Virus genome (UHGV): UHGV-0305798
Length of the DNA stretch: 32,780 nt
From: a virus
Strand: one strand, 5' to 3'
The position numbers were made by a program, and so were the translations under genes. Every line of letters starts with the position of its first letter. Within the stretch, counting starts at the first letter, position 1. This document shows positions 4,087 through 32,780 of this stretch, piece by piece. The notes beneath the pieces were generated by a model. The model made no database searches. It was not told the origin of the DNA and saw only the letters and a program-made list of their open reading frames with translations.

Positions 4087-4090
4087 CCAC

Positions 4091-4715: not shown

Positions 4716-4756
4716 GAGTAGATTATGCATGATGAATTTGATGGATTTTGAATACT

Positions 4757-4782: not shown

Positions 4783-4793
4783 GCATGGTATTA

Positions 4794-4808
4794 TTACCAC
4801 AACGGTAA
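4794..4808. promoter_or_regulatory. palindromic site TTACC-ACAAC-GGTAA (copy A)
   Basis: Read directly; a half-degenerate second copy (TTACC-ACGGT-GGTTA) follows immediately. Lies 18 bp upstream of the terminase small subunit ATG. Confidence 0.4.
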
Positions 4809-4825
4809 CAATTACCACGGTGGTT

Positions 4826-6894: not shown

Positions 6895-6944
6895 TCCGCT
6901 GGTGGGGATAATGTCGTTGATATCCTCTGATGAGGATAAAACAA

Positions 6945-6970
6945 AGCCAGCTCATCGGCTGGCTGTTTGT
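6945..6970. terminator. terminator hairpin after terminase large subunit
   Basis: AGCCAGC-tcatc-GGCTGGCT followed by GTTTGT; a second hairpin (TATCCTC-tgat-GAGGATA) lies just upstream. Sits between convergent genes. Confidence 0.45.
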
Positions 6971-6980
6971 GACATGTCAC
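6969..6980. repeat. 12-bp perfect palindrome GTGACATGTCAC (copy 2)
   Basis: Read directly; identical to 4704..4715, with the same flanking T and G. Confidence 0.6.
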
Positions 6981-6984
6981 GGTG

Positions 6985-7407
6985 TTAGAAGGTTATTTTA
7001 TCGAATGCGGCGTTGATTGCCTTGGCGTCCTGCTCAGCACCAACCACATCAAGTAAAGATCTTTTACTAAGCACTTCAGCCAGGCATTGTAACTTCATGT
7101 TGTATAAGTTTTCGCGCATGTAATCATCATCACTTTTTTCTTTGGCGTATACAGCGCGAGAAATATCAAACACATTGCCTTTTTCCATTTCAGTTTTCTG
7201 CGCTGAAATCCAGTCATGGCAAGTAACTCCTATTCCATGGTCATCGCTAAGCGTTAACCCGGCAAGTCGCTCACCTGGAATTGCTTCACAAAGCATTTCA
7301 TTTCCTGCAAAAACACCATAAAAAATTGAGTCATCACCCTGAACAATGCGTACATATTTGCACGGCCATTCATTTAGATATTTAGCTAGCATGTCGGCTG
7401 TTTTCAT
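6985..7407 (-). CDS. hypothetical protein (140 aa), reverse-strand insert between terminase and portal
   Basis: ATG at 7407 preceded by AAGGTGAG; clean ORF; looks AT-richer than flanking genes by eye; no family recognised. Confidence 0.6.
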   Translation of the reverse strand: MKTADMLAKYLNEWPCKYVRIVQGDDSIFYGVFAGNEMLCEAIPGERLAGLTLSDDHGIGVTCHDWISAQKTEMEKGNVFDISRAVYAKEKSDDDYMRENLYNMKLQCLAEVLSKRSLLDVVGAEQDAKAINAAFDKITF

Positions 7408-7424
7408 GATCTCACCTTAAAAAA

Positions 7425-7448
7425 ATGCCCGGCGAACCGGGCTGTACT
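7425..7448 (-). terminator. rho-independent terminator (minus strand) between tRNA and the 140-aa gene
   Basis: Minus-strand reading GCCCGG-ttcg-CCGGGC followed by ATTTTTTT, immediately upstream of the gene's RBS. Confidence 0.4.
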
Positions 7449-7572
7449 GGTTTACAGCATGAAGTCATCGCAATGGCGTCCTGCTGTAAAAAGGGCGGTG
7501 ATAGTTCTTCAAGGGAAACCATCACCGCCAAGCCCCTGGAACTTCTGGCATCACGGTCCTTAGGCGTGATTC

Positions 7573-7649
7573 TGGCGTGGCATGCAGGATTCGAACCTGC
7601 GACCAACCGCTTAGAAGGCGGTTGCTCTGTCCGACTGAGCTAATGCCAC
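7573..7649 (-). tRNA. tRNA-Arg (anticodon UCU)
   Basis: Minus-strand sequence GTGGCATTAGCTCAGTCGGACAGAGCAACCGCCTTCTAAGCGGTTGGTCGCAGGTTCGAATCCTGCATGCCACGCCA folds as a cloverleaf: 7-bp acceptor stem, D arm, anticodon stem ACCGC/GCGGT with loop CTTCTAA, T loop TTCGAAT, encoded CCA end. Confidence 0.85.
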
Positions 7650-7971
7650 AACGCTGAGAGCACTTAGCCTGTTAAGGCGCCACACTTTGTCGCGGCTCCA
7701 TAAATGCTCTCATCGTTGTACCCTCGTCTCTTCCGAGGCGTCACACCGAATCGCCGGGATGGTGAATCCCCGTGCGCGGAATAAAACCGCTCGACTTGCA
7801 CATTCCGGCTACCTGGTTCGTTTGCCCGAGCAAGGGAGGGTGCCCCTTAAACGTATCCAGACCGCTATCGGCGCATGTGCCATACGCCGTACTGCTCAAA
7901 ATAAAAGCTCACTCCACCTGTTTAATTTAACGACAAGCCAGTCAGGTTAGTAACCAGAATGAGCTCTTTAG

Positions 7972-7986
7972 TTACCTGAAAGGTAA
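7972..7986. promoter_or_regulatory. palindromic site TTACC-TGAAA-GGTAA (copy B)
   Basis: Read directly; about 90 bp upstream of the small ORF and portal operon; 17-mer TTACCTGAAAGGTAATA is identical to copy E. Confidence 0.4.
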
Positions 7987-8076
7987 TAATTCACGCGTTA
8001 AATGTCAACCTTCTACGATAAATAAATCATATGTGGTTAAATTGGTAATAATTTAATTGCGTACGGAGTCATTGAT

Positions 8077-16401: not shown

Positions 16402-16976
16402 TGTGCGATCCGGTTATTGCTGGTGGCGCAATGCTCGCCATGAGTGGCATTCAGGCATACACCCAGTACCAACAGGGAAAGTATGCCTCGAAGGTTGCAG
16501 AAGCGAACGCAGATATAGCCACAGCTCAGGCAAATGATGCAATAAACAGGGGTAACGCTGAAGCTGAGCAACGACGCAGAGAGACCCGACAGCGGCTTGG
16601 TACACAGGCGGCGACAATGGGGGCTACCGGCGCTGATTTATCTACAGGTAACGCGCTGGATATATTTGGCGACACTGCCCAGTTTGGCGCTCTTGATTCG
16701 CTGACGACGGTGAATAACGCGCAACGCGAGGCTTACGGTTATCAGGTTCAGGCTGCCAACTATAAAGCAGAAGCCAGTTCAGCCCGTAAACAGGGGAATG
16801 TGGGAGCAGCAACAACATTGCTCACTGCGCCTCTGAAGGCATACGGTGCGTACCAGATGTTTGGTGGGACGTGGAGTCCGTTCTCTAAAGGAAGTACATC
16901 TAGTGGTGGGACGCCAATGTTATCTAACTCAGGTTTTATGAATTCTGACTCCCGATTCAAAATAGGAGGTTACTGA
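16401..16976 (+). CDS. internal virion protein B-like (T7 gp14-like)
   Basis: 191 aa starting MC..., Ala/Gln-rich N-terminal region like T7 gp14; positioned before two giant core-protein genes. Confidence 0.55.
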   Translation: MCDPVIAGGAMLAMSGIQAYTQYQQGKYASKVAEANADIATAQANDAINRGNAEAEQRRRETRQRLGTQAATMGATGADLSTGNALDIFGDTAQFGALDSLTTVNNAQREAYGYQVQAANYKAEASSARKQGNVGAATTLLTAPLKAYGAYQMFGGTWSPFSKGSTSSGGTPMLSNSGFMNSDSRFKIGGY

Positions 16977-19723
16977 TGCCTGTTGTTCCTACTACATCCG
17001 GACGCCAGGTGCAAAGTCGTGGTGTGCAAACCGGTGGTTTTCAGACCTTCGATGTTCCTCAAGCAGGTCAGGTGCTGGCGAATGTCGCAGATCAGTATGC
17101 GGTGGCATATGGTGAAGCTAGGCAGAAAGCGAATGTTGCTATGGCCCAGGAGGCGTTACTGCAATTTAACCAATTTGCAGATGACCAGATTAACAACCCT
17201 GAAAATGGGCTGATTTCTAAACAGGGTAAAAACGCTCTTGGTCAGAGTGACGCTGTTATGAAAAATATGCAGGAAAGGGCTCAGGCATTATTAGGCTCAA
17301 TTCCTGAAAGTGAGGAAAGGAATAAATTATCCTTTCAACTCCAGCAGTCTATGCAGTCTTATTACAATCAGGCACGTCGATATGAAGTTGGGCAGTTTCA
17401 GCAATTCCAAGATCAAACGTATTTGTCAGGAAATGCATTGGCTGTCACTCAGTCTGCGGGGCTATATAGCGATAACCAAGCATTTGTCGATTTAGCCAAG
17501 CAGCGATTTGAATCTATTGATCAATACGCTGATGCGCATGGGCTTCCTGATGAGTGGCGTGTTCAGCAGAAAACTCAGCTCAAGGAACAAATGGGGCAGC
17601 AAGCATGGATAGGAAATATCGCTCAAAAATACAACGAGTTTCTTCAGGTTAATGGAGAGCCAGGGGATCTTGATGGTGTGAGTCGTGCAATATCACATGG
17701 TAATTCATTGGATGCTCGTGGTTTACGTAATAATAACCCTGGTAATATTGAAGCGAGCAAATCTAACCCGTGGGAAGGTCAGATCGGTAGTGATGGACGT
17801 TTTGCAACGTTTGCTACCCCTGAGCATGGAATCCGCGCGTTGGGTAAAAATATGTTGTCTTACCAGCGTCAAGGCTATGACACCGTTAGCGAGATTGTTA
17901 ATCGCTATGCTCCGGCTAGTGATGGTAATAATACTGATGCTTATATTAGGGCATTGTGTAGTGAGCTTGGTGTTGGGGAGAATGATCAGCTTGATATCTC
18001 TAACCCAAAGACACTAGCTGCTTTATGTGCTGGGATTATTAAACACGAAAATGGCAGTATGCCTTATAGCACCGAACAGCTTGAAACTGGTATCTCGGCA
18101 GCCCTTGGTCTAACTAACCTTGATTCACCTAAGCGTTATACGGGCAATGCGGCATTTGACGCTATGAGCCCTCAAATGCAAATACAGGCATTGAGGCAGG
18201 CTAATGAGCTGAGAAATCAGTACCGCCAGCAGTATGCGGACCAGCTTAGCACCGTAGTTAAAGATGCATATTCAGCCCTTGATGAAGGATTGAAACCTGA
18301 GAAGTTACCTTCTGAGGACGATTTTATCCGGGCCAATGGTCCGCGCATTGGCGCTATGAAGTGGAAGGATATGCAGGCGCAGATACAATATGGAGGTGTC
18401 ATTGGTGCCGCTAAAGACCTCACTCCAGAAGGACGACAAGACATTCTTGAACGTTTACGTCCACAGGATCCAAATGCTCCTGGATTTGCAGCTAACCAGC
18501 AACGCTGGGAGAAAATGCAGGCCAAATTTAAAGAGATGGATAGGGAGTGGGAGATTCAGCAGGGAAGAAACAGGTTCGTGTCTTCAATGCAAAATAACTT
18601 CCCGCTGGACCCTAACGACAAAAACAATCAGGCAGCGGTAGACCGTTATTTCGCGCAGGATATCGCGCCTTCGTTTTCCATATCTGATCCGCAGAGCATC
18701 AATACACTGGTCACCGTCACAACTAAAAGCGGCATGATACCAACTCAGGTTAAAACAATGCTTAACAGTGGAGCAACATCAAGAGATCCTGCGCTGGTTG
18801 TCCCGATGGCAAAATTCTACGGTCAGTTATTCGATAATAATCCGGCGGCAGCGGCAACACTTGATAAAAGTACGATGGCATTTTACGGCAAGGTTTACGA
18901 TTATTCCCGCGCTGGCGTGCCGGAGGATAAGGCTGTTGATATGGCTTACAGCCAGGTGTTCCAACAGGATGACCGAATGAAACAGATGCTTTCCACTGCC
19001 ATGCGAGACAAAAAATATGTCGCGGCGAGGGCAACTGCTGCACAAAATAACGCCAGCAGTCTGACTTCCTTTGGTTCGTGGTCTCCGGATATTACCGATC
19101 CAGGAAAATCAAATGCGGCCTATCAGCGAGATTACCAGACAATTTACGATGCTAACTTTGTACAGACAGGTGGCGATGCAGAACAGGCTGAGAAAATGAC
19201 CAATGCCATGATCAGAACCACCTGGGGAGTTTCTACAGTTAATGGCAAAGCAGAGGTTATGAAGTATGCACCTGAGGCATTGTACGGAGTAAATAATGGT
19301 GCTGGTAACTGGATACAGGGGCAGTGGGAGCAGGAAAAACGCGAGCTTAAATCAAAATCCTTTGGCGGTCCTCGCAGTGATACGGACTTAATACTTGTTT
19401 CTGATGGCCTTACGGCAAGGGATAGGAGTTATGCTGTTATGGTTTTACAGCCTGACGCAAACGGAGCGATAGAACCGAGAAATTATATTGGAGAAAATGG
19501 TCTCCCTGTTCGTTTCAAGCCGGATCAGCTGACATCTCCAATGTACAGGCAAACCATTCAGTTCCAGCAACAGCGTGTTGATGAGGCTAGAGTGCGGAGA
19601 GAAGGCAATCCGCTGCCGCAGTTCAGCAATAAAGATGGATATACTCCTCCAGATCTGACCAAACCATTCGGTTATGGTTCAGCCAATTACCTTCCGAGCA
19701 ATATATACGCAGGGGGCAAATAA
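16976..19723 (+). CDS. internal core protein C-like (gp15 position), 915 aa
   Basis: Large ORF in the gp15 slot with tight overlaps to neighbours; contains a distinctive block (RGLRNNNPGNIEASKSNPWEGQ...VNRYAP) that may be a catalytic or cell-wall-interacting domain. Confidence 0.6.
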   Translation: MPVVPTTSGRQVQSRGVQTGGFQTFDVPQAGQVLANVADQYAVAYGEARQKANVAMAQEALLQFNQFADDQINNPENGLISKQGKNALGQSDAVMKNMQERAQALLGSIPESEERNKLSFQLQQSMQSYYNQARRYEVGQFQQFQDQTYLSGNALAVTQSAGLYSDNQAFVDLAKQRFESIDQYADAHGLPDEWRVQQKTQLKEQMGQQAWIGNIAQKYNEFLQVNGEPGDLDGVSRAISHGNSLDARGLRNNNPGNIEASKSNPWEGQIGSDGRFATFATPEHGIRALGKNMLSYQRQGYDTVSEIVNRYAPASDGNNTDAYIRALCSELGVGENDQLDISNPKTLAALCAGIIKHENGSMPYSTEQLETGISAALGLTNLDSPKRYTGNAAFDAMSPQMQIQALRQANELRNQYRQQYADQLSTVVKDAYSALDEGLKPEKLPSEDDFIRANGPRIGAMKWKDMQAQIQYGGVIGAAKDLTPEGRQDILERLRPQDPNAPGFAANQQRWEKMQAKFKEMDREWEIQQGRNRFVSSMQNNFPLDPNDKNNQAAVDRYFAQDIAPSFSISDPQSINTLVTVTTKSGMIPTQVKTMLNSGATSRDPALVVPMAKFYGQLFDNNPAAAATLDKSTMAFYGKVYDYSRAGVPEDKAVDMAYSQVFQQDDRMKQMLSTAMRDKKYVAARATAAQNNASSLTSFGSWSPDITDPGKSNAAYQRDYQTIYDANFVQTGGDAEQAEKMTNAMIRTTWGVSTVNGKAEVMKYAPEALYGVNNGAGNWIQGQWEQEKRELKSKSFGGPRSDTDLILVSDGLTARDRSYAVMVLQPDANGAIEPRNYIGENGLPVRFKPDQLTSPMYRQTIQFQQQRVDEARVRREGNPLPQFSNKDGYTPPDLTKPFGYGSANYLPSNIYAGGK

Positions 19724-22700
19724 TGCCGATATATGAACAGGATCCTAAAGAGTTGCTTGGCGAGGATATTCAGCAAATAGCAGCACCTGATGACAGTAAT
19801 TTCTATATGGAAACACCTTCTTTGCTTTCTGCTGTGAACCCATTTACCAGTGAGCAACGCGTTCAAAGGTCTAGACAAGCAGCATTTCGTATAGATAACA
19901 CGCTGGGTAGCTTTATTGCCAGTGCTCCTTTCAGTCAGTTTGACAGGGTTGAAGGATATAACCCATTTGATAACGATGCAGCAGATATTAAAGGCTATGA
20001 AGATTTTGCAGATTCGTTTATCAACTCCGGTTCGCATGAAGAAACAATGGCAATTAAACATCGAATCGATAAGCAAAGAACAGATAGAGAATATCTATCT
20101 GAAATGGGTGGTGCTGGTACTATTTCAAGCTTAGCAATGGGAATGATAGACCCGGTTAATGTGGCTGCAATGTTCATCCCTGTAGGGGCGGTAGCGCGTG
20201 GAGGAAGTATTGCTGAGACGGCAGGGCGTTTTGCCCTGGCGAATGCTGCTGGTGGGGGAGTATCAGAAGCCGCATTACAGGCCACTCAGGAAGCTCGCTC
20301 ACCGATGGAGAGCGTATCGAACGTTGTTGTTGATGCTCTCGTTGGTGGGATCCTTGGTGCTGGTGCACAGCTACTTGCTGGACCTAGCGCGCGCGAGGCA
20401 GTGGTTAACTCAGTAGGTAATCATTTGCGAGGTATGGATTCTCCTCAAAGCATTGGTGCAGCTCAGGTTTTCAATACCACACTCGATCAGGAACAGCTCG
20501 CTGGACTTGGACTTGCTAACAAAACGTTGAGTGTCACTCCTGCTGGCCGCTTGGCGCAATCACCATCTCTTGTCTCCCGTCAGATTAACCAGCAGCTTGC
20601 CGAAAATAACTATTTCTTCGCCAAAAATGATGAGGGGTTGGCTACGTTTACGGCAGTCGAGACTAAGATTAAGCAATACGACGCCATGCTTTATAAGCAG
20701 ATGGAAGCTACTCGTGATGCTTACCAGCAGTACAGCAAATCTGTCAGCGCCCGCGGCGTGAAGAGGATGAACTTTATTGATTTCAATGAAGCTGTTGGCA
20801 TGGCTATGCGCCGTGGTGATCAGAGTGATATTCCTGAGGTTTCACAAGCAGCCGCCAGAATCCGCCCCATTTTTGAGACCACAAAAGCCCGTATGCAGGA
20901 ATTGGGGATCCTTCCTGAGGATATCGATGTCGTGACGGCGAAGAGTTATCTTCCCCGCATTTATAAGTTCGATAAGATACTTTCCGACCGCACTGAATTC
21001 AGAGGGCGAATTGCCAACTGGATACAAGGGATTAGTGCCAAAGGTGCTGACAAAGCAGGTCAGCGAATTGAAAAGATAAATTCATTGCTAAAAACTGCAG
21101 AGGAATCAGCACCGCGCGCTGATGCTCTCGCTAGTGAAATCGCTGAAGCGGAGAAATGGTCTGGTAAAAAAATTCTACTCATGGAAGAACTGGATAAACG
21201 AAATAAGCTTATATCTCAGGAGACTGACACACAGGCGCGTCTTACAAGAATAGAAAAAGAGTTGGCCGAGACTTCATCAGAAAAACTTCAGGCAAGAATG
21301 ATGAAAGAAAGCTCTGACCTTAAAACACGCCTTGATGATATAGCGCAGGCAAAGAGTGAGCTTCCTGTCTATCAGCGCCATATGGAGTTGCTGGATAATC
21401 CACGGAAATATCGTTCTGAGCTTCGCCGACTGCAAAAACGGGCAAATTCAACCACAAGGCTGAATGCAAGCCGCGAGCGAGCACTGAAGCAGATGGAGCC
21501 TCTATCCCGAGAGGAAGCAGAGGACGCTGCTGACGAGATCGTGAATAAAATAATAGGCGCACCTTCCGGGCTTGTACCAGCCGATATTATCCCAGAGAGA
21601 CTCGTTGGTCGGGCTGGTTTCACTAAAAGCAGAACGCTGCTTATTCCTGATGAGCGTATAGAAGATTTTCTTGAATCAGATGTTAACTACATCATGGAAA
21701 GTTATCTCCGGCAGGTGGCACCAGAAATTGAGCTGACTGCGCAGTTTGGCCGTAAAGATATGGGGGAGCAAATCCGTCAGGTTAGTGAGGAATATACCCG
21801 GCTAATAAAAGAGGCTAAAACACCTAAACGACGTGCAGTTCTTGAGAAGCAACGGGAGGCTGATATTAGGGATATTACGGCTATGCGTGATCGACTGCTT
21901 GGTACTTACGGTGCACCTCAAGATCCACGCAGTTTCTTTGTTCGTGCCGGGCGAGTTGCTAGGAATATTAACTTCCTCCGTTTGCTTGGTGGAATGACTG
22001 TCTCCGCTGCAACTGATCTGATGCGACCGATGATGCAGCATGGCCTGAGAAAATCTCTCGGACCAATGGTAAGCATGCTTAAAAATATGGACTCAGTAAA
22101 AATTGCAACCAGGGATTTGCGAGAAATGGCAGTTGGGCTTGATTATGTCCTGTCTACGCGTACAAAGGCTATAGCGGATCTTACTGACCCCTATAGCCGG
22201 AGAAGCGCCGCTGAGCGAGGTCTGAACTGGATGACGCAGAAATTCGGTAACTGGACGCTGATGAATCAGTGGAACAGCGCACTTAAATCATGGTCTGGGA
22301 TGATAGTGCAGTCGAGGATACTTGACGCGGCTCGCCAAGTTTCTGCTGGTGGCACGCTCTCCAAAAGTGAAATGCGGAAGATGGCACAGGTCGGCATCAA
22401 TGAAGATGTTCTGCGCCGAATCGGGGAGCAATTCGGGAAGCACGGAGAGGATATGGACGGGCTGTTAACCGGGCATAGTCATCTGTGGGATGACCGTTTC
22501 GCTAGAGAGATTTTCCAGTCTGCAGTGCTGAAAGATGTAGACTCAGTGATTGTAACGCCTGGCGTAGGTGATACACCGCTGTTTTTTAGTAAAGAAGGCT
22601 GGAAGATGATCACGCAGTTCAAAACGTTTATCTTCGCACAGCATAACAGGGTGCTGGTATCTGGTATCCAGCAGGGCGATGCTGCATTCTATCTTGGTGC

Positions 22701-23112
22701 GCTTGGCACGATTGCGCTTGGCTCAATGGTCTATATGATGAAACAGAAGTTAAGCGGTCGCGATATCGACTACAGCTGGAATAACCTTGTGAAAGAGGGG
22801 ATCGACCGGGGCGGAATGCTTGGCTGGCTCTCTGAGCCGCTGAATACCGTTGAGAACATAAGCGGCGGTAGGTTTGGTCTTGGCGCGATGTTTGGTGCGC
22901 CTCCGGTATCAAGGTTTCAGAGTCGTAATGCTATTGGTGCTTTACTTGGTCCTACCTTTGATCTTGGCGGTGATGCCGCGACGGTTGCAAATGGTGTACT
23001 TAACGGAGAATTTGACAGCCAGCAAACCCACGCTGTCCGTAAAATGCTACCTTTTCAGAATCTGTGGGCGATATCACCATTACTAAATAAAGTTGAAGAG
23101 CAGATGAAATAG
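19723..23112 (+). CDS. internal core/ejection protein D-like (gp16 position), 1129 aa
   Basis: Largest ORF in the module, in the gp16 slot; long charged coiled-coil centre and Gly/Ala-rich hydrophobic segments. No transglycosylase motif recognised. Confidence 0.6.
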   Translation: MPIYEQDPKELLGEDIQQIAAPDDSNFYMETPSLLSAVNPFTSEQRVQRSRQAAFRIDNTLGSFIASAPFSQFDRVEGYNPFDNDAADIKGYEDFADSFINSGSHEETMAIKHRIDKQRTDREYLSEMGGAGTISSLAMGMIDPVNVAAMFIPVGAVARGGSIAETAGRFALANAAGGGVSEAALQATQEARSPMESVSNVVVDALVGGILGAGAQLLAGPSAREAVVNSVGNHLRGMDSPQSIGAAQVFNTTLDQEQLAGLGLANKTLSVTPAGRLAQSPSLVSRQINQQLAENNYFFAKNDEGLATFTAVETKIKQYDAMLYKQMEATRDAYQQYSKSVSARGVKRMNFIDFNEAVGMAMRRGDQSDIPEVSQAAARIRPIFETTKARMQELGILPEDIDVVTAKSYLPRIYKFDKILSDRTEFRGRIANWIQGISAKGADKAGQRIEKINSLLKTAEESAPRADALASEIAEAEKWSGKKILLMEELDKRNKLISQETDTQARLTRIEKELAETSSEKLQARMMKESSDLKTRLDDIAQAKSELPVYQRHMELLDNPRKYRSELRRLQKRANSTTRLNASRERALKQMEPLSREEAEDAADEIVNKIIGAPSGLVPADIIPERLVGRAGFTKSRTLLIPDERIEDFLESDVNYIMESYLRQVAPEIELTAQFGRKDMGEQIRQVSEEYTRLIKEAKTPKRRAVLEKQREADIRDITAMRDRLLGTYGAPQDPRSFFVRAGRVARNINFLRLLGGMTVSAATDLMRPMMQHGLRKSLGPMVSMLKNMDSVKIATRDLREMAVGLDYVLSTRTKAIADLTDPYSRRSAAERGLNWMTQKFGNWTLMNQWNSALKSWSGMIVQSRILDAARQVSAGGTLSKSEMRKMAQVGINEDVLRRIGEQFGKHGEDMDGLLTGHSHLWDDRFAREIFQSAVLKDVDSVIVTPGVGDTPLFFSKEGWKMITQFKTFIFAQHNRVLVSGIQQGDAAFYLGALGTIALGSMVYMMKQKLSGRDIDYSWNNLVKEGIDRGGMLGWLSEPLNTVENISGGRFGLGAMFGAPPVSRFQSRNAIGALLGPTFDLGGDAATVANGVLNGEFDSQQTHAVRKMLPFQNLWAISPLLNKVEEQMK

Positions 23113-23113
23113 G

Positions 23114-23965
23114 ATGAAAAAAATAAATTTGTTTTTTGGCATAGTGCTTTCAATAGTCTCTGTAAATCCTACAGCTGCCAGTTCATTGCAATGCAATAAG
23201 GATAACTTTGATGCATGCAAAACGTGCGAACAATTATCAAAGGCTATCGACTTAAAAGAACCTAATCGTGGCGATTACTATAGAGGGGCTTTATGGAATG
23301 GGCTTTACGCCTCTTATGTAATTAATTGCCCTGTGGTTGCAGAGAAGTTACTGAGCCATGGTGCTATACCATCATATGGCGGATATATGGGGTCTATGGG
23401 GGCGGTTCTGACAGGAAAATGGCCTCATAACAATGAATCAATAAATCTTTCATGGGCAGATTTGCTTATAAAACATGGATTTGATGTTAATAGGCATACG
23501 GGGAATTATAAATCAGCTACTGAAGTATGGGCTATAGATAAAAAACAGATTGAATATAAGTCAGTTTTTGACAAGTTAATTCAATCCAGCGAAGTAAAAC
23601 CACTCGATCCTTCAAGAAATTTAGAATGGTGTGCGTCTGAAGGGTATCGCTCAGTTGTCGTTTATTCCCTTAACTCATGTATAGAAAATGCTATAAAACG
23701 TTTGGATGACGGTGTTTCTTCAGCGTCTGATATTTCATCAGCAGCCGTAAATTCCTGTACTAGCGATGTAGAAAATTTCAATAAGCATTTGGCATGCAAA
23801 GCAGCTGTTAAAGAAAACTCTGATAAAGAGAGAAGCAACGTTTACCAGTTATTAACCAGTGATAGTCAAATGAATAAAAATGTTATTGATATGCTGAAGG
23901 AAAGAAATATTGAAACGGTTCTTGAATTTAGAGCTGAAAATCGATCAGCGAAAACTGCACAGTGA
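23114..23965 (+). CDS. AT-rich secreted protein (283 aa), accessory gene
   Basis: Sec-type signal peptide (MKKINLFFGIVLSIVSVNPTAAS), several Cys, and visibly lower GC than flanking genes (by eye); followed by a strong terminator. Confidence 0.6.
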   Translation: MKKINLFFGIVLSIVSVNPTAASSLQCNKDNFDACKTCEQLSKAIDLKEPNRGDYYRGALWNGLYASYVINCPVVAEKLLSHGAIPSYGGYMGSMGAVLTGKWPHNNESINLSWADLLIKHGFDVNRHTGNYKSATEVWAIDKKQIEYKSVFDKLIQSSEVKPLDPSRNLEWCASEGYRSVVVYSLNSCIENAIKRLDDGVSSASDISSAAVNSCTSDVENFNKHLACKAAVKENSDKERSNVYQLLTSDSQMNKNVIDMLKERNIETVLEFRAENRSAKTAQ

Positions 23966-23971
23966 TCAAAC

Positions 23972-25033: not shown

Positions 25034-25726
25034 TCAGAAGAACCCTGCCTTGTCGTTGATGTACTCCGCGTGGGTCTGGATATCACGCAGGCATTTGCTC
25101 ACACCAACGATGTAGCAGAACATGGTGGTCAGCTCCGCCGCCGCGCCCGATACGTCGTGCCCGTCTTCCTGTAACTGGTTCAGCAGATTCATCAGCAGTG
25201 AGTTCTCCGTCAGGCCGAGAACACCAGACGGAGAATGAATCAGGCTGCGGTAGCCGGGCTTCAGCGGGGCGCTGTAGGTTTTGTTCTCTATCTTCATTGC
25301 CTGCATCACTGCTGATGCTGTGGCGTTTGCAACCTGGTCGGCAACCATCTTTATGCGTTCTTCCTGCGGGAGCGAGTTTTTAATGTAACTTCCGGTGCGG
25401 CGGATCTGAGGAAGAACCTCACCTGTAACCCATTCAAGAAATCTGAATGCTCTCGTTCCCTCAGTCATTGCCTCTTTGCAACGCAGAATAAGGATGTAGA
25501 GACCTGATTCTGAAACGATGGATAGTTCTTGTATTCCACCAGGGGTCTGTATTGAATACAGCCCCTTTTTGTTCCAGCCTTTTTTATCAAGTTTTCTCGC
25601 TTGTGTAACATCAATATTCAAAGCATTGCACACATCTTTGGTGACAAACCAAGGTTCTCCGTCAATCATGAACATACGGATCTGGCAGGATGACTCAAAG
25701 GAAAAGATGGAAGGTTTGGTATTCAT
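25034..25726 (-). CDS. Bro-N domain antirepressor-like protein
   Basis: N-terminus (MNTKPSIFSFESSCQIRMFMIDGEPWFVTKDVCNALNI) matches the BRO-N signature of phage antirepressors; start at 25726 after AAAGGTGA (the ORF-track start 25771 adds 15 aa). C-terminal 70 aa are paralogous to the small gene at 26040..26297. Confidence 0.75.
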   Translation of the reverse strand: MNTKPSIFSFESSCQIRMFMIDGEPWFVTKDVCNALNIDVTQARKLDKKGWNKKGLYSIQTPGGIQELSIVSESGLYILILRCKEAMTEGTRAFRFLEWVTGEVLPQIRRTGSYIKNSLPQEERIKMVADQVANATASAVMQAMKIENKTYSAPLKPGYRSLIHSPSGVLGLTENSLLMNLLNQLQEDGHDVSGAAAELTTMFCYIVGVSKCLRDIQTHAEYINDKAGFF

Positions 25727-25880
25727 GGCGATCACCTTTGTAGTTAGGTTAATCACCACCGCTGAGACCAATCAGATGGTGGTGAACTGTGCAGAGTTGG
25801 TCTTACCGGCTACAAAGGAACCCGGCGCACCTTTCGGTGCCCCCACACAGCCCACCATAGAATAGGTGCGCTTTACACAT

Positions 25881-25906
25881 AAAAAAACCGCTTATGCGGC
25901 ATATGT
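25881..25906 (-). terminator. possible terminator (minus strand) downstream of the small LexA-box gene
   Basis: Minus-strand GCCGC-ataa-GCGGU followed by seven U; short stem, so moderate. Confidence 0.35.
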
Positions 25907-25993
25907 GCCTCTGTAGTAATCCGGGAGACCAATCCCGGCACTGGATTTTGCCAGTGCCCGATTACTATGGCACAAGAGGAGTGCGATGTAAAT

Positions 25994-26008
25994 TTACCGC
26001 AAAGGTAA
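25994..26008. promoter_or_regulatory. palindromic site TTACC-GCAAA-GGTAA (copy D)
   Basis: Read directly; extended palindrome ATTTACC-GCAAA-GGTAAAT; lies between the antirepressor and the small paralogous gene. Confidence 0.4.
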
Positions 26009-26039
26009 ATATAAGCACTCCATTTGGTAATTGCAAACC

Positions 26040-26297
26040 TTATCTGGTTTGTTTTCGTAATTGTTCGGCACAATAGTCGAGATGTGTTTGCAGATCCTGC
26101 ATAGACATCTGTGAGCTGGTGACGTAGTTAATCAGTGCAGTCAGTTCGGCAAGTGGGCCATCGACATTAAATCCATCCTTATCGAGATCCCGGAGTAATT
26201 TCATCAAGTGCGATCCCTCCACCAGTGACCTGACGCCTCCCGGCGTGTGAATCCTTTCGGTAAATCCGTCTTCCAGTGGATAGTGATACTGCTGCAT
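26040..26297 (-). CDS. small antirepressor-like protein (Tum-like, about 85 aa)
   Basis: About 40% identical by eye to the C-terminal domain of the adjacent antirepressor (shared IH-P-GV, AELT, DxQTHxxY motifs). ATG at 26297 has GGAG at 9 nt; alternative ATG at 26312. A LexA box lies immediately upstream. Confidence 0.6.
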   Translation of the reverse strand: MQQYHYPLEDGFTERIHTPGGVRSLVEGSHLMKLLRDLDKDGFNVDGPLAELTALINYVTSSQMSMQDLQTHLDYCAEQLRKQTR

Positions 26298-26317
26298 CTT
26301 AATCTTCTCCATGCAAT

Positions 26318-26337
26318 AACTGTATATTTATACAGTA
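26318..26337. promoter_or_regulatory. LexA (SOS) box
   Basis: AACTGTATATTTATACAGTA matches the CTGT-N8-ACAG consensus (TACTGTATATATATACAGTA) at 18 of 20 positions; sits just upstream of the small antirepressor-like gene. Confidence 0.7.
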
Positions 26338-26374
26338 TCAAATAATTTGTTTGCTATCCAGCACGTTTTGAAAA

Positions 26375-26389
26375 TTACCTGAAAGGTAA
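26375..26389. promoter_or_regulatory. palindromic site TTACC-TGAAA-GGTAA (copy E)
   Basis: Read directly; about 105 bp upstream of the tailspike ATG and about 40 bp beyond the LexA box; 17-mer identical to copy B. Confidence 0.4.
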
Positions 26390-26493
26390 TATCTATTCAT
26401 ATTCACAGTCTTTCTATCCATATATGGTTTTTTGGGTAATAGAATAACCAGATATGCGGCGCAACGGGTGCTGCGACTATCTGGAGATTTAAC

Positions 26494-28956
26494 ATGACGG
26501 TCTCAACCGAAGTTGACCACAACGAATACACAGGTAACGGCGTTACGACATCATTTCCGTATACCTTCCGTATTTTCAAAAAATCCGACCTGGTTGTTCA
26601 GGTGTCTGACCTTAACGGTAACGTTACAAAACTAGTGCTGGATGCTGGTTATACGGTAACAGGGGCGGGAACTTATAGTGGCGGTGCAGTGGTTCTTCCG
26701 TCGCCGCTTGCTGCTGGCTGGCGAATCACGATAGAGCGTGTGCTTGATGTGGTGCAGGAGACTGATCTTCGCAATCAGGGAAAATTTTTCCCCGAAGTTC
26801 ATGAGGATGCATTTGACTACCTGACGATGCTGATCCAGCGATGTTTTGGGTGGTTCAGACGTGCATTGATGAAACCATCTTTGCTTGCAAAATATTACGA
26901 TGCAAAGCAAAACAGAATATCTAACCTTGCAGATCCATCATTTGAGCAGGACGCTGTAAATAATCGCTCAATGCGCAATTATGTCGATGCTGCAATCGCC
27001 GGGGTTGTTGGTGGTTTTGGTTGGTTTATTCAGTATGGTTCTGGAGCGGTATACAGAACACTCCAAGATAAGATGCGTGATGGTGTCAGCATTAAGGATT
27101 TTGGAGCTCAAAATGGAATCTTAAATGATAACAAGGAGTCTTTTACAAAATCATCACATTCGTTTAGCAGTGTTTTTGTTCCGGAAGGGGTATTCAATAC
27201 ATCTTTAGTTTCTCTTTCACGTTGTGGCTTGTACGGAACAGGTGGGGGAACGATAAAACAGTATGACAGAGATGGTAATCATCTGGTTTTTAACATGCCC
27301 GATGGTGGCATGCTTAGTACGCTAACAATTATGGGAAATAAATCAGATGATAGTGTGCAGGGACACCAGGTGTCATTTTCAGGTGGCCATGATGTATCGG
27401 TTAAAAATATCAGATTTACAAATACGCGAGGACCAGGATTTAGCTTGATCGCTTATCCGAATAATGGTATTCCGTCAGGTTACATTGTTAGAGATATAAG
27501 AGGAGAGTATTTAGGGTTCGCAAATAATAAAAAAGCAGGTTGTGTGCTTTTTGATTCATCGCAAAACACGCTAATTGATGGTGTGATAGCCAGAAATTAT
27601 CCTCAGTTTGGTGCAGTGGAACTTAAAACAGCAGCAAAATATAACATTGTCAGCAATGTTATTGGTGAAGAGTGTCAGCACGTTGTTTACAATGGAACTG
27701 AGACGGAAACTGCCCCAACGAATAATATCATTAGCAGTGTAATGGCTAACAACCCAAAATACGCCGCAGTAGTTGTTGGCAAGGGGACTGGTAACCTGAT
27801 TTCGGATGTGCTGGTTGATTACTCTGAATCGGACGCAACGCAGGCGCACGGCGTCACCGTTCAGGGAAATAATAATATTGCCAGTAATATTCTAATGACT
27901 GGGTGTGACGGGAAAAATGAATCAGGAGATCTGCAGAAATCTACAACCATTCGTTTCTTAAATGCTGCAGGCAGTAATTATGCGTCAATATTCCCCATGT
28001 ATAGTTCTTCTGGCGTGGTTACCTTCGAGGAAGGGTGTATCAGGAACTTTGTTGAAATTAAACATCCGGGTGATAGAAATAATATTCTGAGTTCTGCATC
28101 AGCGGTGACTGGTATTTCCAGTATAGACGGCACTACAAATAGCAATGTTGTTCACGTCCCTGCGCTTGGTCAGTACATTGGGACTATGTCAGGGCGTTTT
28201 GAATGGTGGGTTAAATATTTTAACCTTGCTAACCAGACGCTTGTTTCTGCAGATAAATTCAGAATGCTTGCTGAAGGAGATGTATCTCTGGCTGTGGGAG
28301 GCGGTATAAGGTCGCAATTGAAATTATTCAATAGTGATAATACTAAAGGCACTATGTCGCTAATAAATGGAAATATTCGAATATCTACTGGAAATTCAGA
28401 ATATATACAGTTTTCTGATTCAGCCATGACACCATCGACAACGAATACTTATTCTCTTGGGTTGGCTGGTCGTGCATGGTCGGGGGGATTTACCCAGTCA
28501 GCGTTTACGGTGCTGTCCGATGCGCGTTTCAAGACTGCTCCAGAGGTTATTGATGAGAAAATACTGGACGCATGGGAAAGAGTGGAATGGGTTTCATACC
28601 AGTACCTTGACAGGATCGAAGTGAAAGGTAAAGACGGAGCAAGATGGCACTTTGGTGCAGTTGCGCAGCATGTTATCAGTGTATTTCAGAATGAAGGCAT
28701 AGATGTGTCACGACTGGCATTTATCTGTTATGACAAGTGGAATGAGACCCCGGCAGAATACAGGGATGTGACGGAAGAAGAGCATTCTGCAGGAGTTTAC
28801 CCACTTATACAGACAAAGGTTCTGGTACGCGAAGCCGTCGAGGCTGGTGAATGTTACGGTATCCGTTATGAAGAGGCTCTGATTCTGGAATCTGCGATGA
28901 TGAGACGCAGGGTTAAAAAGCTGGAAGAGCAAGTTTTGCAATTAACAGGGAATTGA
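26494..28956 (+). CDS. tailspike/tail fiber with T7 gp17-like N-terminal domain and C-terminal intramolecular chaperone domain
   Basis: N-terminal 110 aa follow the T7 gp17 particle-binding pattern. Central region is Gly/Asn/Thr-rich with repetitive beta-strand-like segments, consistent with a beta-helix. C-terminal block (SDARFKTAPEVIDEKILDAWERVEWVSYQY...WHFGAVAQHV...EALILESAMMRR) matches the self-cleaving chaperone domain (peptidase S74-like) of endosialidase-type tailspikes. Confidence 0.85.
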   Translation: MTVSTEVDHNEYTGNGVTTSFPYTFRIFKKSDLVVQVSDLNGNVTKLVLDAGYTVTGAGTYSGGAVVLPSPLAAGWRITIERVLDVVQETDLRNQGKFFPEVHEDAFDYLTMLIQRCFGWFRRALMKPSLLAKYYDAKQNRISNLADPSFEQDAVNNRSMRNYVDAAIAGVVGGFGWFIQYGSGAVYRTLQDKMRDGVSIKDFGAQNGILNDNKESFTKSSHSFSSVFVPEGVFNTSLVSLSRCGLYGTGGGTIKQYDRDGNHLVFNMPDGGMLSTLTIMGNKSDDSVQGHQVSFSGGHDVSVKNIRFTNTRGPGFSLIAYPNNGIPSGYIVRDIRGEYLGFANNKKAGCVLFDSSQNTLIDGVIARNYPQFGAVELKTAAKYNIVSNVIGEECQHVVYNGTETETAPTNNIISSVMANNPKYAAVVVGKGTGNLISDVLVDYSESDATQAHGVTVQGNNNIASNILMTGCDGKNESGDLQKSTTIRFLNAAGSNYASIFPMYSSSGVVTFEEGCIRNFVEIKHPGDRNNILSSASAVTGISSIDGTTNSNVVHVPALGQYIGTMSGRFEWWVKYFNLANQTLVSADKFRMLAEGDVSLAVGGGIRSQLKLFNSDNTKGTMSLINGNIRISTGNSEYIQFSDSAMTPSTTNTYSLGLAGRAWSGGFTQSAFTVLSDARFKTAPEVIDEKILDAWERVEWVSYQYLDRIEVKGKDGARWHFGAVAQHVISVFQNEGIDVSRLAFICYDKWNETPAEYRDVTEEEHSAGVYPLIQTKVLVREAVEAGECYGIRYEEALILESAMMRRRVKKLEEQVLQLTGN

Positions 28957-29028
28957 ACCGTAAATGGTGTGTTGTTGCGCGGTATACTTTTCCTGAAGCA
29001 GGGTGTTTGCAAATAAACGGGTTTCGTT

Positions 29029-29433
29029 ATGTCATTCCAACTAACCAATGAAACTTCAAATCAGTGGCTTAGTGTTAGTTCTCTTGCTGCGGTTATTGCA
29101 GGTGTCCCTCCGGAGGTTGCTTTAGGGGCTTTGGCTGGGGCGGTAATTTTTGTTACCTCTGCAGTAGAGTACCCCATCCGTCGCCGGGTGCTCCTGTCGA
29201 TGCTCAGCTTTCTTTGCGGCCTTCTCTTTTACAAACCAGCAGCATCAATTCTTATCGGCATAGCCAGCCTGATCCCTACCATCACGCAGGACTCTTTTGA
29301 AAAAGGGATTGTTTTCTCTGCAGGCGCATTCGTGTCAGCAATTGTCGCTGTGCGTATTGGTATATGGCTCTATCACCGTTCCGATAATCCACGCGAGTTA
29401 ATTCCGGGGAGAAAAGACGATGGTAACGCATGA
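29029..29433 (+). CDS. membrane protein (134 aa), holin-like
   Basis: Several hydrophobic helices; first gene of the lysis cassette; stop overlaps the next gene. Confidence 0.5.
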   Translation: MSFQLTNETSNQWLSVSSLAAVIAGVPPEVALGALAGAVIFVTSAVEYPIRRRVLLSMLSFLCGLLFYKPAASILIGIASLIPTITQDSFEKGIVFSAGAFVSAIVAVRIGIWLYHRSDNPRELIPGRKDDGNA

Positions 29434-29728
29434 GTTTTTTTTGCTTATCACCAATGCAGTTATTTGCACTGGCATAGCAATTCGCGTTGTCACATTCCGG
29501 CGTAACGGCTCTCAACATCGAAGGTGGGGAGGATGGCTTGCTTATTTCCTGATTGTTGCTGCGGCCAGTATTCCTGTTCGAGTCGCCTATGCAATCTGGT
29601 TACGCACGCCAATGGCTGTGGATTTATCTGAGGTCATTATCAACGCTGTCATGCTTGCTGCGGTTCTTAAAACTCGCGGTAACGTCGTTCAGATTTTCAA
29701 GATAACGAGGTCTAAACATGGAGATTAA
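29420..29728 (+). CDS. membrane protein (102 aa), putative holin
   Basis: Three predicted transmembrane segments and a charged C-terminus; directly upstream of the endolysin. Confidence 0.5.
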
Positions 29729-30347
29729 ACAATTCCAGCGAGCTGCTGGTATTAGCGAGGCGCTGGCCGCACGCTGGTTCTCGCATATAACTTCTGCGAT
29801 GAAAGAGTTTGGTATCAGCAAAGCAGAAGATCAGGCAATGTTTATTGCTCAAGTCGGGCATGAGTCTGGGGGCTTCACCAGGTTGCAGGAGAATTTCAAC
29901 TACAGTGTCAGCGGACTGGCTAACTTCGTTCGGGCTGGGCGTCTCACTCAGGGGCAGGCTAATGCACTGGGGCGCCGTGCTGGTGAACCACCATTGCCAC
30001 TTGAGCGCCAGCGCGCGATCGCAAATCTGGTATACAGCAAACGCATGGGGAACAATGCCCCTGGTGATGGCTGGAATTACCGAGGGCGCGGACTTATCCA
30101 GATTACCGGTTTGAATAACTATCGTGATTGCGGAAACGGTCTGAAGGTTGACCTGCTGGAGAGCCCTGAACTGCTGGCGCAGGACGAATATGCGGCTCGT
30201 AGCGCGGCGTGGTTCTTCGCCAGCAAAGGATGCATGAAGTATACCGGCGATATTGCACGTGTAACTCTGATTATCAATGGTGGCCGGAACGGCATCGACG
30301 ACCGGCGCGCGCGGTACATCGCTGCCAGTAAGGTGCTGGCGGTATGA
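29718..30347 (+). CDS. endolysin, glycoside hydrolase family 19 (chitinase-like) type
   Basis: Motifs [12 protein letters not shown] and [16 protein letters not shown] are characteristic of GH19-type phage endolysins (recall-based); sits between holin-like genes and Rz. Confidence 0.8.
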
Positions 30348-30826
30348 TCTGGGCATTCGTAAAAGCATACCGGAAACAGTTGATTATCATGGCGGTGCTT
30401 GCTGTTCTGGTCATATCAGGAGTTGCTGCCTGGAGTGTACACGGCAGTCGTCAGTACGACGCCGGGTATGCGCAGGCGAAAGAAGACCGCAAAACCGAAG
30501 ATGAGAGAATTCGTCAGCACTACGAACAGGAGAAAGCGATCAATGAACGTGAAGCGCAGCAGAGGATCGACCAGGCGCGCAATGATGCTCTTGATGCTGC
30601 CGCTCGCGCTGGCCGGTTGCAGCAACAGCTCGTTGCCATCCGTGAGCAGCTCAGGCAGTATAACGCCATTGTCGGCGCTGGGACGTCAGCCGCAGACACC
30701 GGAGTTTTGCTTGCCGACGTGCTCAGTAAATCTCTCGAGAGAAACAGACAACTGGCAGAGTATGCTGACCGGGCAGCCGAAGCCGGAAGAGTCTGTGAAA
30801 AACAGTACGACACCCTGACCAGATAG
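30344..30826 (+). CDS. Rz-like inner-membrane spanin (i-spanin)
   Basis: N-terminal transmembrane helix then a long charged coiled coil; overlaps the endolysin stop (ATGA); contains an embedded lipoprotein ORF in the +1 frame. Confidence 0.75.
30582..30818 (+). CDS. Rz1-like outer-membrane lipoprotein spanin (o-spanin), embedded in Rz
   Basis: The +1 frame inside Rz encodes [17 protein letters not shown]..., a lipoprotein signal with lipobox LAGC followed by a Pro/Ser-rich segment. Start placed at the first ATG before the signal peptide; the longer ORF 30399..30818 is probably not translated from its first codon. Confidence 0.6.
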   Translation: MMLLMLPLALAGCSNSSLPSVSSSGSITPLSALGRQPQTPEFCLPTCSVNLSRETDNWQSMLTGQPKPEESVKNSTTP

Positions 30827-30883
30827 CATGGCATTTTTCATGGTACTGATTTCCGGTGACGGTATATAAAACGGTACGAGGAA

Positions 30884-30944
30884 AATTGAGTTTTGGAAAA
30901 ATGTTATCACTCAATTGGTTATGGTATCCGTAAATAATTGAGTG
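30884..30944. repeat. short repeated 8-9 bp elements (AATTGAGT) in the prophage-host junction region; candidate att arm sites
   Basis: AATTGAGT at 30884-30891, its reverse complement CACTCAATT at 30908-30916 and AATTGAGTG at 30936-30944, between the last phage gene and the host terminator. Confidence 0.3.
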
Positions 30945-30975
30945 GGAATGATTTGACCCTGCACTATGAATGAAC

Positions 30976-31007
30976 AAAACCCTCTGTTACTACAGAGGGT
31001 TTTTTAT
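30976..31007. terminator. bidirectional rho-independent terminator
   Basis: AAAA-CCCTCTG-ttacta-CAGAGGG-TTTTTTAT; A-tract on one side and T-tract on the other; downstream of the reverse-strand yfgI-like gene. Confidence 0.65.
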
Positions 31008-31043
31008 CCTAAAGAATTATAGGTTTGAAGTTACTAACATCGT

Positions 31044-31583
31044 TTAGTTAAACCAGCTATCTGATTTATTCTCTTCTGCTTTACCCACGCTTTTCATCAG
31101 ATCGCGACCGCCTTCAGTCATATTTCTGTTTGCGTCAGCTTCAGATTGCACCACATCGGTTTGCGCAGCTTTGTGCTTCAGTTCCTGATCGATAAATTCG
31201 TTTTCGCGCTTAACGCGGGCTTCTTCTTTCGCCAGCGCCAGTTTTTGTTTCTGAATCTCTAAGCTACGTAGCTCATCTTCATAACTTTGATCGCGTTTTT
31301 TGTCCGCAGTGGCTTCGGCGTCCAGTTTATCCTGACGAGCTTTCTTATTCGCTGCTGCCGTTGCCGCTCTTTTATTAGCCGCGGCCTGGGCGTTTGCGCG
31401 ACGTTGCTTCTCTTGCTGGATTTCCCTGTTGCGCTCCGCGACCCATTCGTCATGCTGCCTTTGCTCTTCATTTTTACCTTGCTGTTCCGCTTCTGCGACA
31501 GCCGAGAGTTGATCCTGCAATGATGAGGCGATAGCCGGATAGCTTAAGGAGGCTAAGATGGCGCAAAGAAAAACTTTCTTCAT
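31044..31583 (-). CDS. yfgI: periplasmic charged coiled-coil protein, YfgI-like (179 aa)
   Basis: Signal peptide (MKKVFLCAILASLSYPAIA) then Lys/Glu/Ala/Gln-rich helical protein. Length and the neighbouring 172-aa lipoprotein and 63-aa genes match my recollection of the E. coli yfgG-yfgH-yfgI locus; symbol is recall-based. Confidence 0.55.
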   Translation of the reverse strand: MKKVFLCAILASLSYPAIASSLQDQLSAVAEAEQQGKNEEQRQHDEWVAERNREIQQEKQRRANAQAAANKRAATAAANKKARQDKLDAEATADKKRDQSYEDELRSLEIQKQKLALAKEEARVKRENEFIDQELKHKAAQTDVVQSEADANRNMTEGGRDLMKSVGKAEENKSDSWFN

Positions 31584-31598
31584 GACTCCTCCTGATTA

Positions 31599-32117
31599 TT
31601 AGCTCTTTTCAGGACATTTGGTATTTGGCTGAATACGCGTTTCGTTATACGTCGTGGTAATAACAACGGCTAAACCTGTCGTAAACTGGCACTCTTTACC
31701 CACTTGGGTGGAGGTATACACTTTGGTGCCTTCCTTATATGTTAAAGAAACACCTTCCACTAAGGTTTTATCATTCACCATAGAACCCGCTGCCGCGCCT
31801 ACAGCTCCGCCGCCAACTGCACCTGCCGTCGTTCCGGAATTGCTACCAGACCCGACGTTGTGGCCGATAACACCGCCAGCGACAGCGCCAATAAGCGCGC
31901 CGAAGGCTTGTGCGTTCCGTTTATTTTGGGCGTTGTCTACGGCAACTTTTGCGGGAAGAATGGAAATAATATTAACGGTTTTAGTTTCTTGTTTGGTATT
32001 CAGTTGATCGGTTTGATAAACATCGGCGGCATGATCATCAGCATTTGACTGGCATCCTGCCAGAGTGAATGACGCTAACATTGCCACAGGCAGAAGACAT
32101 TTTTTAAATTTCATCAC
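31599..32117 (-). CDS. yfgH: glycine-zipper outer-membrane lipoprotein, YfgH-like (SlyB/Pcp family; 172 aa)
   Basis: Lipoprotein signal with lipobox (FTLAGC), DVY motif, Gly-zipper (GALIGAVAGGVIGHNVGSG...GAVGGGAVGAAAGS) and C-terminal beta-rich region, as in SlyB-family lipoproteins; length matches recalled E. coli YfgH. Confidence 0.6.
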   Translation of the reverse strand: MMKFKKCLLPVAMLASFTLAGCQSNADDHAADVYQTDQLNTKQETKTVNIISILPAKVAVDNAQNKRNAQAFGALIGAVAGGVIGHNVGSGSNSGTTAGAVGGGAVGAAAGSMVNDKTLVEGVSLTYKEGTKVYTSTQVGKECQFTTGLAVVITTTYNETRIQPNTKCPEKS

Positions 32118-32418
32118 TATTCCTTGTTATACACATTACGAAAAATAAGACATTTAAGATCATCAAAAGAGGAAAGTAAATGTATTGCGTATAAAGGAAT
32201 AGATTAAATTTATTAAAATTCATGTGGGGAATAATTTATAAAAATACATCATCACAACATATGTATTAATGATGTATTTATTTCGCAGCCGAACTGCAGT
32301 CAGAACAAAGACGTAAAATTTAAGATGAAAGAATATCTGCCGCTTTGATAATCTCAAAGAGCAAAAGCATCCGACAGCGAGGTGCCGTTATGTTCTGTGA
32401 GAGTGGAGAAGGTAACCG

Positions 32419-32610
32419 CTAACGTTGTACCGGTGATTCGACGGAGAGTGTGGATTGCTGAGCTTCTTTTTTGCTCTGATGGTGCTGCCAGGCACCGACG
32501 GACGAGTAGATAAAACGGCCAAAGAAGAAGATAAAGCTGATGAGCAGTACGATACGGGTCATGCGACTGTTAAATCGGTGTCGTTTTCGCATACTGGTTG
32601 CCTGACTCAC
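32419..32610 (-). CDS. yfgG: small membrane protein, YfgG-like (63 aa)
   Basis: 63-aa ORF with basic N-terminus and one hydrophobic helix (IVLLISFIFFFGRFIY); position and size agree with recalled E. coli yfgG. Confidence 0.45.
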   Translation of the reverse strand: MSQATSMRKRHRFNSRMTRIVLLISFIFFFGRFIYSSVGAWQHHQSKKEAQQSTLSVESPVQR

Positions 32611-32780
32611 AAAAGGTTCCTTGAAGTATGTCCCACGCCGTGGACGGTACTTACATTAAGGCACAACAGGACAAAATGGTCAATTCTTCGTTATGTAAAG
32701 AAGCGTCAGTGAATACATATTTTAATGTTATGGAAGTTAATTTAATTATTTACAATGATGATGTAATAATGATGAGTTAA

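Follow-up and report, generated by a model that had tools for sequence, protein, structure and literature searches.

A prophage-host junction of the epsilon15/phiV10 type at the 3' end of Escherichia coli guaA

Introduction

Phages of the genus Uetakevirus offer the closest described systems for the junction analysed here. The attachment core of vB_EcoP_ZX5 (ZX5 below) was given as 'attgagtgggaatgatt', a sequence that serves as both attP and attB; the attB lies where guaA ends in 3', and PCR with Sanger sequencing verified attB, attL and attR for the integrated phage (PMC9782041). The same sequence was stated to be the attP of phiV10 and epsilon15 (PMC9782041), and TL-2011b has likewise been reported as inserted in guaA (PMC3293862).

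The window, as we call the whole stretch of DNA that was analysed, comprises 32,780 nucleotides of UHGV virus genome UHGV-0305798. An earlier note, made from the sequence alone, had placed a probable prophage-host junction in the interval 30827-31043. Here we compare this interval with complete E. coli genomes, free phages and a lysogen that carries a closely related prophage. We conclude with near certainty that the interval is an attR (P-O-B', the end distant from int) that belongs to a Uetakevirus prophage of the epsilon15/phiV10/ZX5 type. Junctions of this type have been described before, with experimental evidence from near-identical phages, and occur frequently in E. coli.

Results

Position of the junction

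The interval is bounded by phage genes on one side and by host genes on the other:

30344-30826, plus strand: Rz-like i-spanin gene, with which the phage genes end (160 aa; Pfam DUF2514, E 4.9e-41)
about 30543-30818, plus strand: Rz1-like lipoprotein gene embedded in the Rz gene in the +1 frame, at the same offset as in phiV10 and epsilon15
31044-31583, minus strand: yfgI, the first host gene past the junction (179 aa; Pfam DUF5384)
31599-32117, minus strand: yfgH, encoding a glycine-zipper lipoprotein (172 aa; Pfam glycine-zipper)
32419-32610, minus strand: yfgG (63 aa; Pfam DUF2633)

The DUF2514 match confirmed that the phage lysis genes end at 30826, as the earlier note had it. A GH19 endolysin gene and two holin genes lie upstream of the Rz-like gene, and the records of phiV10 and epsilon15 carry the annotation 'Rz-like spanin' with an embedded Rz1. 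The reverse-strand trio that begins at 31044 had been likened to yfgI, yfgH and yfgG, and both the Pfam domains and the RefSeq annotation of E. coli strain 4/0, which gives the same genes these names, agree with this. In prophage-free genomes yfgI is convergent with guaA, the neighbour that is displaced by phage DNA, as the note had it.

Megablast searches were run against 5426 complete E. coli genomes, with 30600-31300 and then the interval 30827-31043 as queries. The alignment spanned the full 217-nt interval in 540 of the 5426 genomes (~10%). In most of the 5404 genomes that matched, it ran only from 30937 on, and the matching segment was annotated 'guaA | yfgI'; the comparison with the prophage-free yfgI-guaA region that the note had proposed thus puts the start of the host match at 30937. 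Free-phage genomes (ZX5, HEMP4, phiV10 and epsilon15) behaved in the opposite way, matching through the lysis genes, stopping at 30953-30954 and then diverging. Over the lysis module and arm, identity to the window was 96.6% for ZX5, 90.5% for phiV10 and 82% for epsilon15. The two breakpoints, 30937 on the host side and 30953 on the phage side, both fall inside the interval in which the junction had been expected.

The att core and the end of guaA

We compared four sequences: the window, the empty site of E. coli LS4 (L002), the attP of phiV10 (L003) and the other end of the prophage in strain 4/0 (L001). Their layouts were P arm - core - B' for the window, B - core - B' for the LS4 attB, P - core - P' for the phiV10 attP, and B (guaA) - core - P' for the strain 4/0 attL. 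The only stretch common to all four was ATTGAGTGGGAATGATT, and the window divides around it as follows:

30827-30936, plus strand: P arm, the 110 bp between the Rz stop and the core, collinear with phiV10, ZX5 and epsilon15
30937-30953, plus strand: att core (O), ATTGAGTGGGAATGATT, 17 bp common to attP, attB, attL and attR
30937-30951, plus strand: relic of the guaA 3' end, I-E-W-E and a TGA stop (30949-30951), matching the end of empty-site guaA
30954-31043, no strand assigned: B' arm, the host guaA-yfgI spacer, 100% identical to prophage-free LS4 and others

The core, which the note had left undetermined, is identical to the published one (PMC9782041). Strand exchange would take place somewhere within these 17 bp.

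In the empty site of LS4, guaA ends ...ATT GAG TGG GAA TGA, so the core consists of the last four guaA codons (I-E-W-E), the stop and two further bases. Host homology starts at 30937, which leaves 12 nt ahead of the guaA stop; guaA coding sequence and stop therefore account for 15 of the 17 core bases. Since the target is the coding end of guaA, the interval holds a 15-nt guaA relic, and the functional guaA would keep an end identical to this relic at the other prophage junction, as in strain 4/0, where guaA is intact beside the integrase gene. The aligned sequences thus locate the insertion point within the final codons of guaA rather than in the spacer itself. The right-hand prophage boundary is 30953, and yfgI, yfgH and yfgG are host genes.

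A proxy for the left end of the prophage

Position 1 of the window already lies within the prophage, and no integrase is encoded in the window, as shown by tblastn and as already remarked in the earlier note. No complete E. coli genome matched positions 1-8000 of the window over more than 66% of their length, and strain 4/0 was therefore used as a proxy from which attL, the integrase and the second core copy were read. Its sequence is 99.0% identical to the window over 25734-32780 and 100% identical over the interval 30827-31043. From the junction to the second core copy, the strain 4/0 prophage measures ~39.6-39.7 kb. The second copy adjoins an intact guaA (2864226-2865803) and a gene for a tyrosine integrase (2862777-2864033), so that the duplicated core and the integrase, which the note had suggested seeking at the other prophage end, were both found there. 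This integrase has 418 aa, lies 190 bp from the core and contains the Pfam domains Arm-DNA-bind_3, Phage_int_M and Phage_integrase; it is 99% identical to the Int of phiV10 and 87% identical to that of epsilon15. An AlpA-family protein (Pfam Phage_AlpA) is encoded near int.

Could the junction be a fossil, left by a defective prophage remnant and no longer a substrate for excision? The left end of the prophage lies outside the window, and comparison with strain 4/0 shows the window to be mosaic, both of which would fit such a remnant. Against this, the core, the P arm and the nearby lysis and tail-spike genes are all intact, the blocks of structural genes match those of the strain 4/0 prophage at 97-99%, and neither the core nor the near-invariant block of the P arm described below carries mutations. 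Close relatives such as ZX5 are inducible (PMC9782041). We consider a fossil junction very unlikely.

Candidate arm-type sites in the P arm

The P arm is missing from empty-site E. coli genomes. A scan of IMG/VR for exact matches to the core gave 120 loci, from which we extracted 103 P arms, 72 of them unique; the accompanying B' flanks were of the E. coli type and of other enterobacterial types. Two features stand out towards the Rz side of the arm:

30843-30878, plus strand: near-invariant block GTACTGATTTCCGGTGACGGTATATAAAACGGTAC, which holds tandem ACGGTAY repeats
30856-30865 (GTGACGGTAT) and 30868-30877 (AAAACGGTAC), plus strand: direct ACGGTAY repeats, candidate arm-type integrase sites

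Across the 72 unique P arms, nearly all columns of the block were at least 95% conserved, and two were at 80-95%. In the window the ACGGTAY motifs start at 30859 and 30871, a spacing of 12 bp, and two copies 12 bp apart were present in 69 of the 72 unique arms. The remaining three arms had three copies, the first two of which were 19 bp apart. Even the most divergent arm (L051) had two perfect copies of GTGACGGTAT at the same 12-bp spacing. In the epsilon15 record, GTGACGGTAT is labelled 'protein_bind: integrase' in both arms, an in-silico annotation, and the P' arm of strain 4/0 has both GTGACGGTAT and an inverted ATACCGTCA. The tandem ACGGTAY repeats are thus the best candidates for arm-type Int sites.

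One attP, that of IMGVR_UViG_3300007747_000006 (L010), shows a gap of ~50 bp in its P arm, running from ...GAAAAAT to the core. The gap takes out the IHF-like site and the inverted repeat considered below, and may be a natural deletion or an assembly artefact.

The repeats and an IHF-like site

The 8-mer AATTGAGT occurs at 30884-30891 and 30936-30943 on the plus strand and at 30909-30916 on the minus strand, as the earlier note had described. These are three of the four copies in the whole 32.8-kb window, and they lie within 60 bp, whereas 1.39 copies are expected window-wide; the clustering is therefore not due to chance. Rfam searches over the whole window returned nothing within 30827-31043, so no known sRNA or riboswitch accounts for the repeats. 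The copies proved to be of three different kinds rather than equivalent sites. The two that lie in the P arm correspond to the following features:

30884-30891, plus strand: first direct AATTGAGT copy, lineage-specific
30905-30917, plus strand: IHF-like site TATCACTCAATTG with an A-tract upstream, one mismatch to the consensus WATCARNNNNTTR

The first copy is not conserved. Its position holds the exact 8-mer in two of the 72 unique P arms and the 7-mer in 12, and the surrounding segment, 30879-30900, is the most variable part of the arm. Judged by this variability, the first copy probably has no function and is an accident of lineage. The third copy (30936-30943) is the base before the core together with the first seven core bases, which belong to guaA codons.

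The inverted copy, ACTCAATT (30909-30916), lies inside TATCACTCAATTG. Here TCAATT was kept in 71 of the 72 unique arms, and the full 8-mer was split between ACTCAATT (37 arms) and AGTCAATT (32 arms). The variants with G fit the IHF consensus WATCARNNNNTTR perfectly. Among the unique arms, 18 of 72 matched this consensus under strict and 51 under relaxed conditions; the window site has one mismatch. The motif lies downstream of a conserved A-tract, and the record of epsilon15 marks an IHF site in the corresponding place. We therefore describe 30905-30917 as an IHF-like site, to which IHF is predicted from the sequence to bind.

Two other groupings of the repeats were considered and rejected. 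The three copies do not form a family of integrase sites across the 72 arms, given that the first is not conserved and the inverted one is kept as TCAATT only. Nor does the inverted repeat form a C/C' core-type pair: the 8-mers are 19 bp apart and just one is in the core.

In the version that follows from the earlier note, these repeats mark an integration site in or next to the yfgI-guaA spacer, the core itself left undefined. The junction does lie in the interval, two of the 17 core bases are past the guaA stop, and one AATTGAGT copy overlaps the core. On the other hand, host homology begins at 30937, which makes the other 15 core bases guaA coding sequence and stop, and the first repeat copy is missing from most related attP arms. 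The alignment of attB, attP, attL and attR refutes integration within or beside the spacer, and we regard it as extremely improbable; the site is the guaA 3' end.

It has also to be considered that the near-palindrome formed by 30908-30924 and 30928-30944 is functional itself, as an accessory core-type Int half-site or, in the late/lysis transcript, as a 3'-UTR hairpin. Its two arms, of 17 nt each, are 82% complementary and would pair P-arm sequence with the core's left half, RNA from 30900-30955 folds at -18 kcal/mol (z -4.6), and attP has a mirror of it on the other side, where the core has GGAATGATT and the P' arm, 18 bp in, has AATCATTCC. However, AGTCAATT in 32 of the 72 arms weakens the complementarity to the invariant core, and 30924-30928 are among the most variable columns. 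The part that is conserved (ATCA.TCAATTG and the upstream A-tract) fits an IHF site better, and the two arms are too widely spaced for a C/C' pair around a 6-8-bp overlap. Natural variants already suggest that integration and excision would be unaffected if ACTCAATT were replaced by AGTCAATT. Because the phage-side arm varies freely where pairing is needed, we rank a dedicated function of the palindrome as a minor possibility, quite unlikely beside the IHF-like site.

The host side of the junction

Within the B' arm lies a single further feature:

30976-31003, no strand assigned: host bidirectional intrinsic terminator of guaA and yfgI, with a perfect 12-bp stem (30976-30987/30992-31003)

A consensus scan for terminators and promoters over 30300-31700 found no promoter and did not list this hairpin, probably because the A/T extension of the stem consumes the T-tail. 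The terminator was therefore assessed by folding, which gave -17.8 kcal/mol on the plus strand and -19.3 kcal/mol on the minus strand (z -4.4 and -4.3; none of 200 shuffles was as stable). The tails read TTTTTT on the plus strand and TTTTGTT on the minus strand. The strong bidirectional terminator of the earlier note is thus real by both stem and folding, but it is host DNA, unchanged in empty sites, and does not characterize the junction. With the prophage in place, it also follows the phage late/lysis operon.

Two database records bear on the same flank. The RefSeq 'complete genome' of TL-2011b (NC_019445.1; L005, 5914-9430) extends beyond the core and takes in host sequence: the genes that it lists as phage gp54-gp56 are yfgI, yfgH (under the label 'DNA methyltransferase') and yfgG, and the boundary is wrong. 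In E. coli GN02350 (NZ_CP095518.1; L126, 4100-7445), the prophage core is separated from yfgI by a second element, of ~3.3 kb. Its genes are for a response regulator, an AAA ATPase and a truncated 'integrase core' protein of the transposase type. Its junctions are within the core, ...ATTGAGTGGGA|GTAGG... and ...TAGCT|GAGTGGGAATGATT, and it is therefore another integrative element, or a remnant of one, at the same guaA end, sharing only GAGTGGGA (30940-30947), a segment that may hint at where in the core the overlap lies.

Other features of the window

Away from the junction, Rfam identified a C4 antisense RNA (RF01695, 78.6 bits) directly followed by isrK (RF01394, 74.7 bits) at 25775-25957 on the minus strand. 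The pair lies just upstream of a minus-strand ORF, 25034-25771, whose counterpart in strain 4/0 is a BRO-N domain protein; the ZX5 counterpart was called an anti-repressor (PMC9782041). Together, 25775-25957 and this ORF look like a P1/P7-type c4-ant antisense immunity module in a prophage.

A phage-borne tRNA-Arg gene (anticodon TCT) is located at 7573-7649 on the minus strand, between the terminase and portal genes, and is also present in the strain 4/0 prophage. The tail-spike gene (26494-28956, plus strand) encodes 820 aa that include a beta-helix region and, at the C terminus, a Peptidase_S74 'chaperone of endosialidase' domain. Its DNA is 99% identical to that of strain 4/0 and differs from that of phiV10 and TL-2011b, a mosaicism of the usual host-range kind. 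In contrast to phiV10 and epsilon15, the window has no O-antigen-modifying gene between the tail-spike and holin genes.

Two regions of the window, 1-4326 (the early region) and 16882-23970, matched the strain 4/0 prophage hardly or not at all by megablast, although it is otherwise 97-99% identical. The second contains large ORFs for internal virion/ejection proteins, including one of 1129 aa (19723-23112). The structural module is mosaic.

Discussion

Mechanism and meaning

The best-supported account is one of Campbell-type integration of the ordinary kind, in which the tyrosine integrase is P4-like and has an N-terminal arm-binding domain in the style of lambda. In the circular phage genome, attP lies between the Rz gene and the integrase gene. 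Int at the arm-type sites of P and P', together with bending by IHF beside the core, would synapse attP with the guaA 3' end, and strands would be exchanged within the 17-bp identity, ATTGAGTGGGAATGATT, that attP and the guaA end have in common. The predicted contacts of Int and IHF are those with the arm motifs described above. GMP synthase would remain intact at attL because the phage core restores the last four guaA codons and the stop; there, guaA would be followed by a terminator supplied by the phage P' arm, in place of the host one, and then by the integrase gene. At attR, the late/lysis operon now leads into the guaA relic and then the host terminator that guaA and yfgI share. In excision, attR would recombine with attL, probably with the AlpA-family protein, a likely excisionase, as directionality factor.

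The value of the analysis lies mostly in correct annotation: the prophage boundary is 30953 and the yfg trio is host DNA, which the TL-2011b record wrongly includes. It also illustrates how a gene of an essential pathway, guaA, is left undisrupted by a common prophage (~10% of complete E. coli genomes). For work on the integrases of Uetakevirus, the conservation map of the P arm provides a concrete list of motifs.

Origin of the attP

The terminator in the P' arm, AACCCTCTGTTTTTGCAGAGGGTTTTT (strain 4/0, L001 reverse, 44-71 nt past the attL core), matches the E. coli guaA terminator of the window (30978-31004) at 24 of 27 positions. None of 2000 shuffles was as similar, a result that is suggestive only, as the shuffles do not keep the hairpin structure. 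Salmonella phage epsilon15 has a very similar terminator, CCCTCTGTTTTTACAGGGGG, though the Salmonella-type B' flank is unrelated. This likeness, found even in epsilon15, suggests that attP descended from a captured guaA 3' flank of the E. coli type. The fuller proposal, that the attP of the genus is a diverged captured flank of this kind and that the near-palindrome of the P arm (30908-30944) is also functional, as an accessory Int half-site or a 3'-UTR hairpin, seems to us unlikely.

Comparison with known systems

ZX5 and phiV10 are the systems most like the window. They have the identical core, a P arm collinear with it downstream of Rz, and a host flank made up of the guaA terminator and yfgI. 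Their P arms show only point differences from that of the window, in the variable middle; for example, phiV10 reads AATGAAGT at 30884-30891, where the window reads AATTGAGT. Elsewhere the prophage is mosaic relative to both, with different tail-spike and early genes.

Epsilon15 resembles the window in its core, in the order Rz - attP - int and in GTGACGGTAT, annotated in both arms, and its record has annotated IHF sites beside the core. Its identity to the window is 82%, and the region of the inverted repeat and IHF-like site reads ACAATTCAATAAG in epsilon15 and ATCACTCAATTGG in the window. The host of epsilon15 is Salmonella, whose flank downstream of guaA (B') is unrelated to that of E. coli.

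The attP and attR of lambda provide the more distant parallel. As in lambda, a tyrosine integrase with an arm-binding domain is combined with arm motifs in both P and P' and a short core, and an IHF-like site, here read from sequence alone, lies between the arm sites and the core. Unlike in lambda, the integrase gene points away from attP and the target is the 3' end of a protein gene, which the phage reconstitutes in the manner of those P4-family integrases whose targets are tRNA 3' ends; the sequences of the two systems are unrelated.
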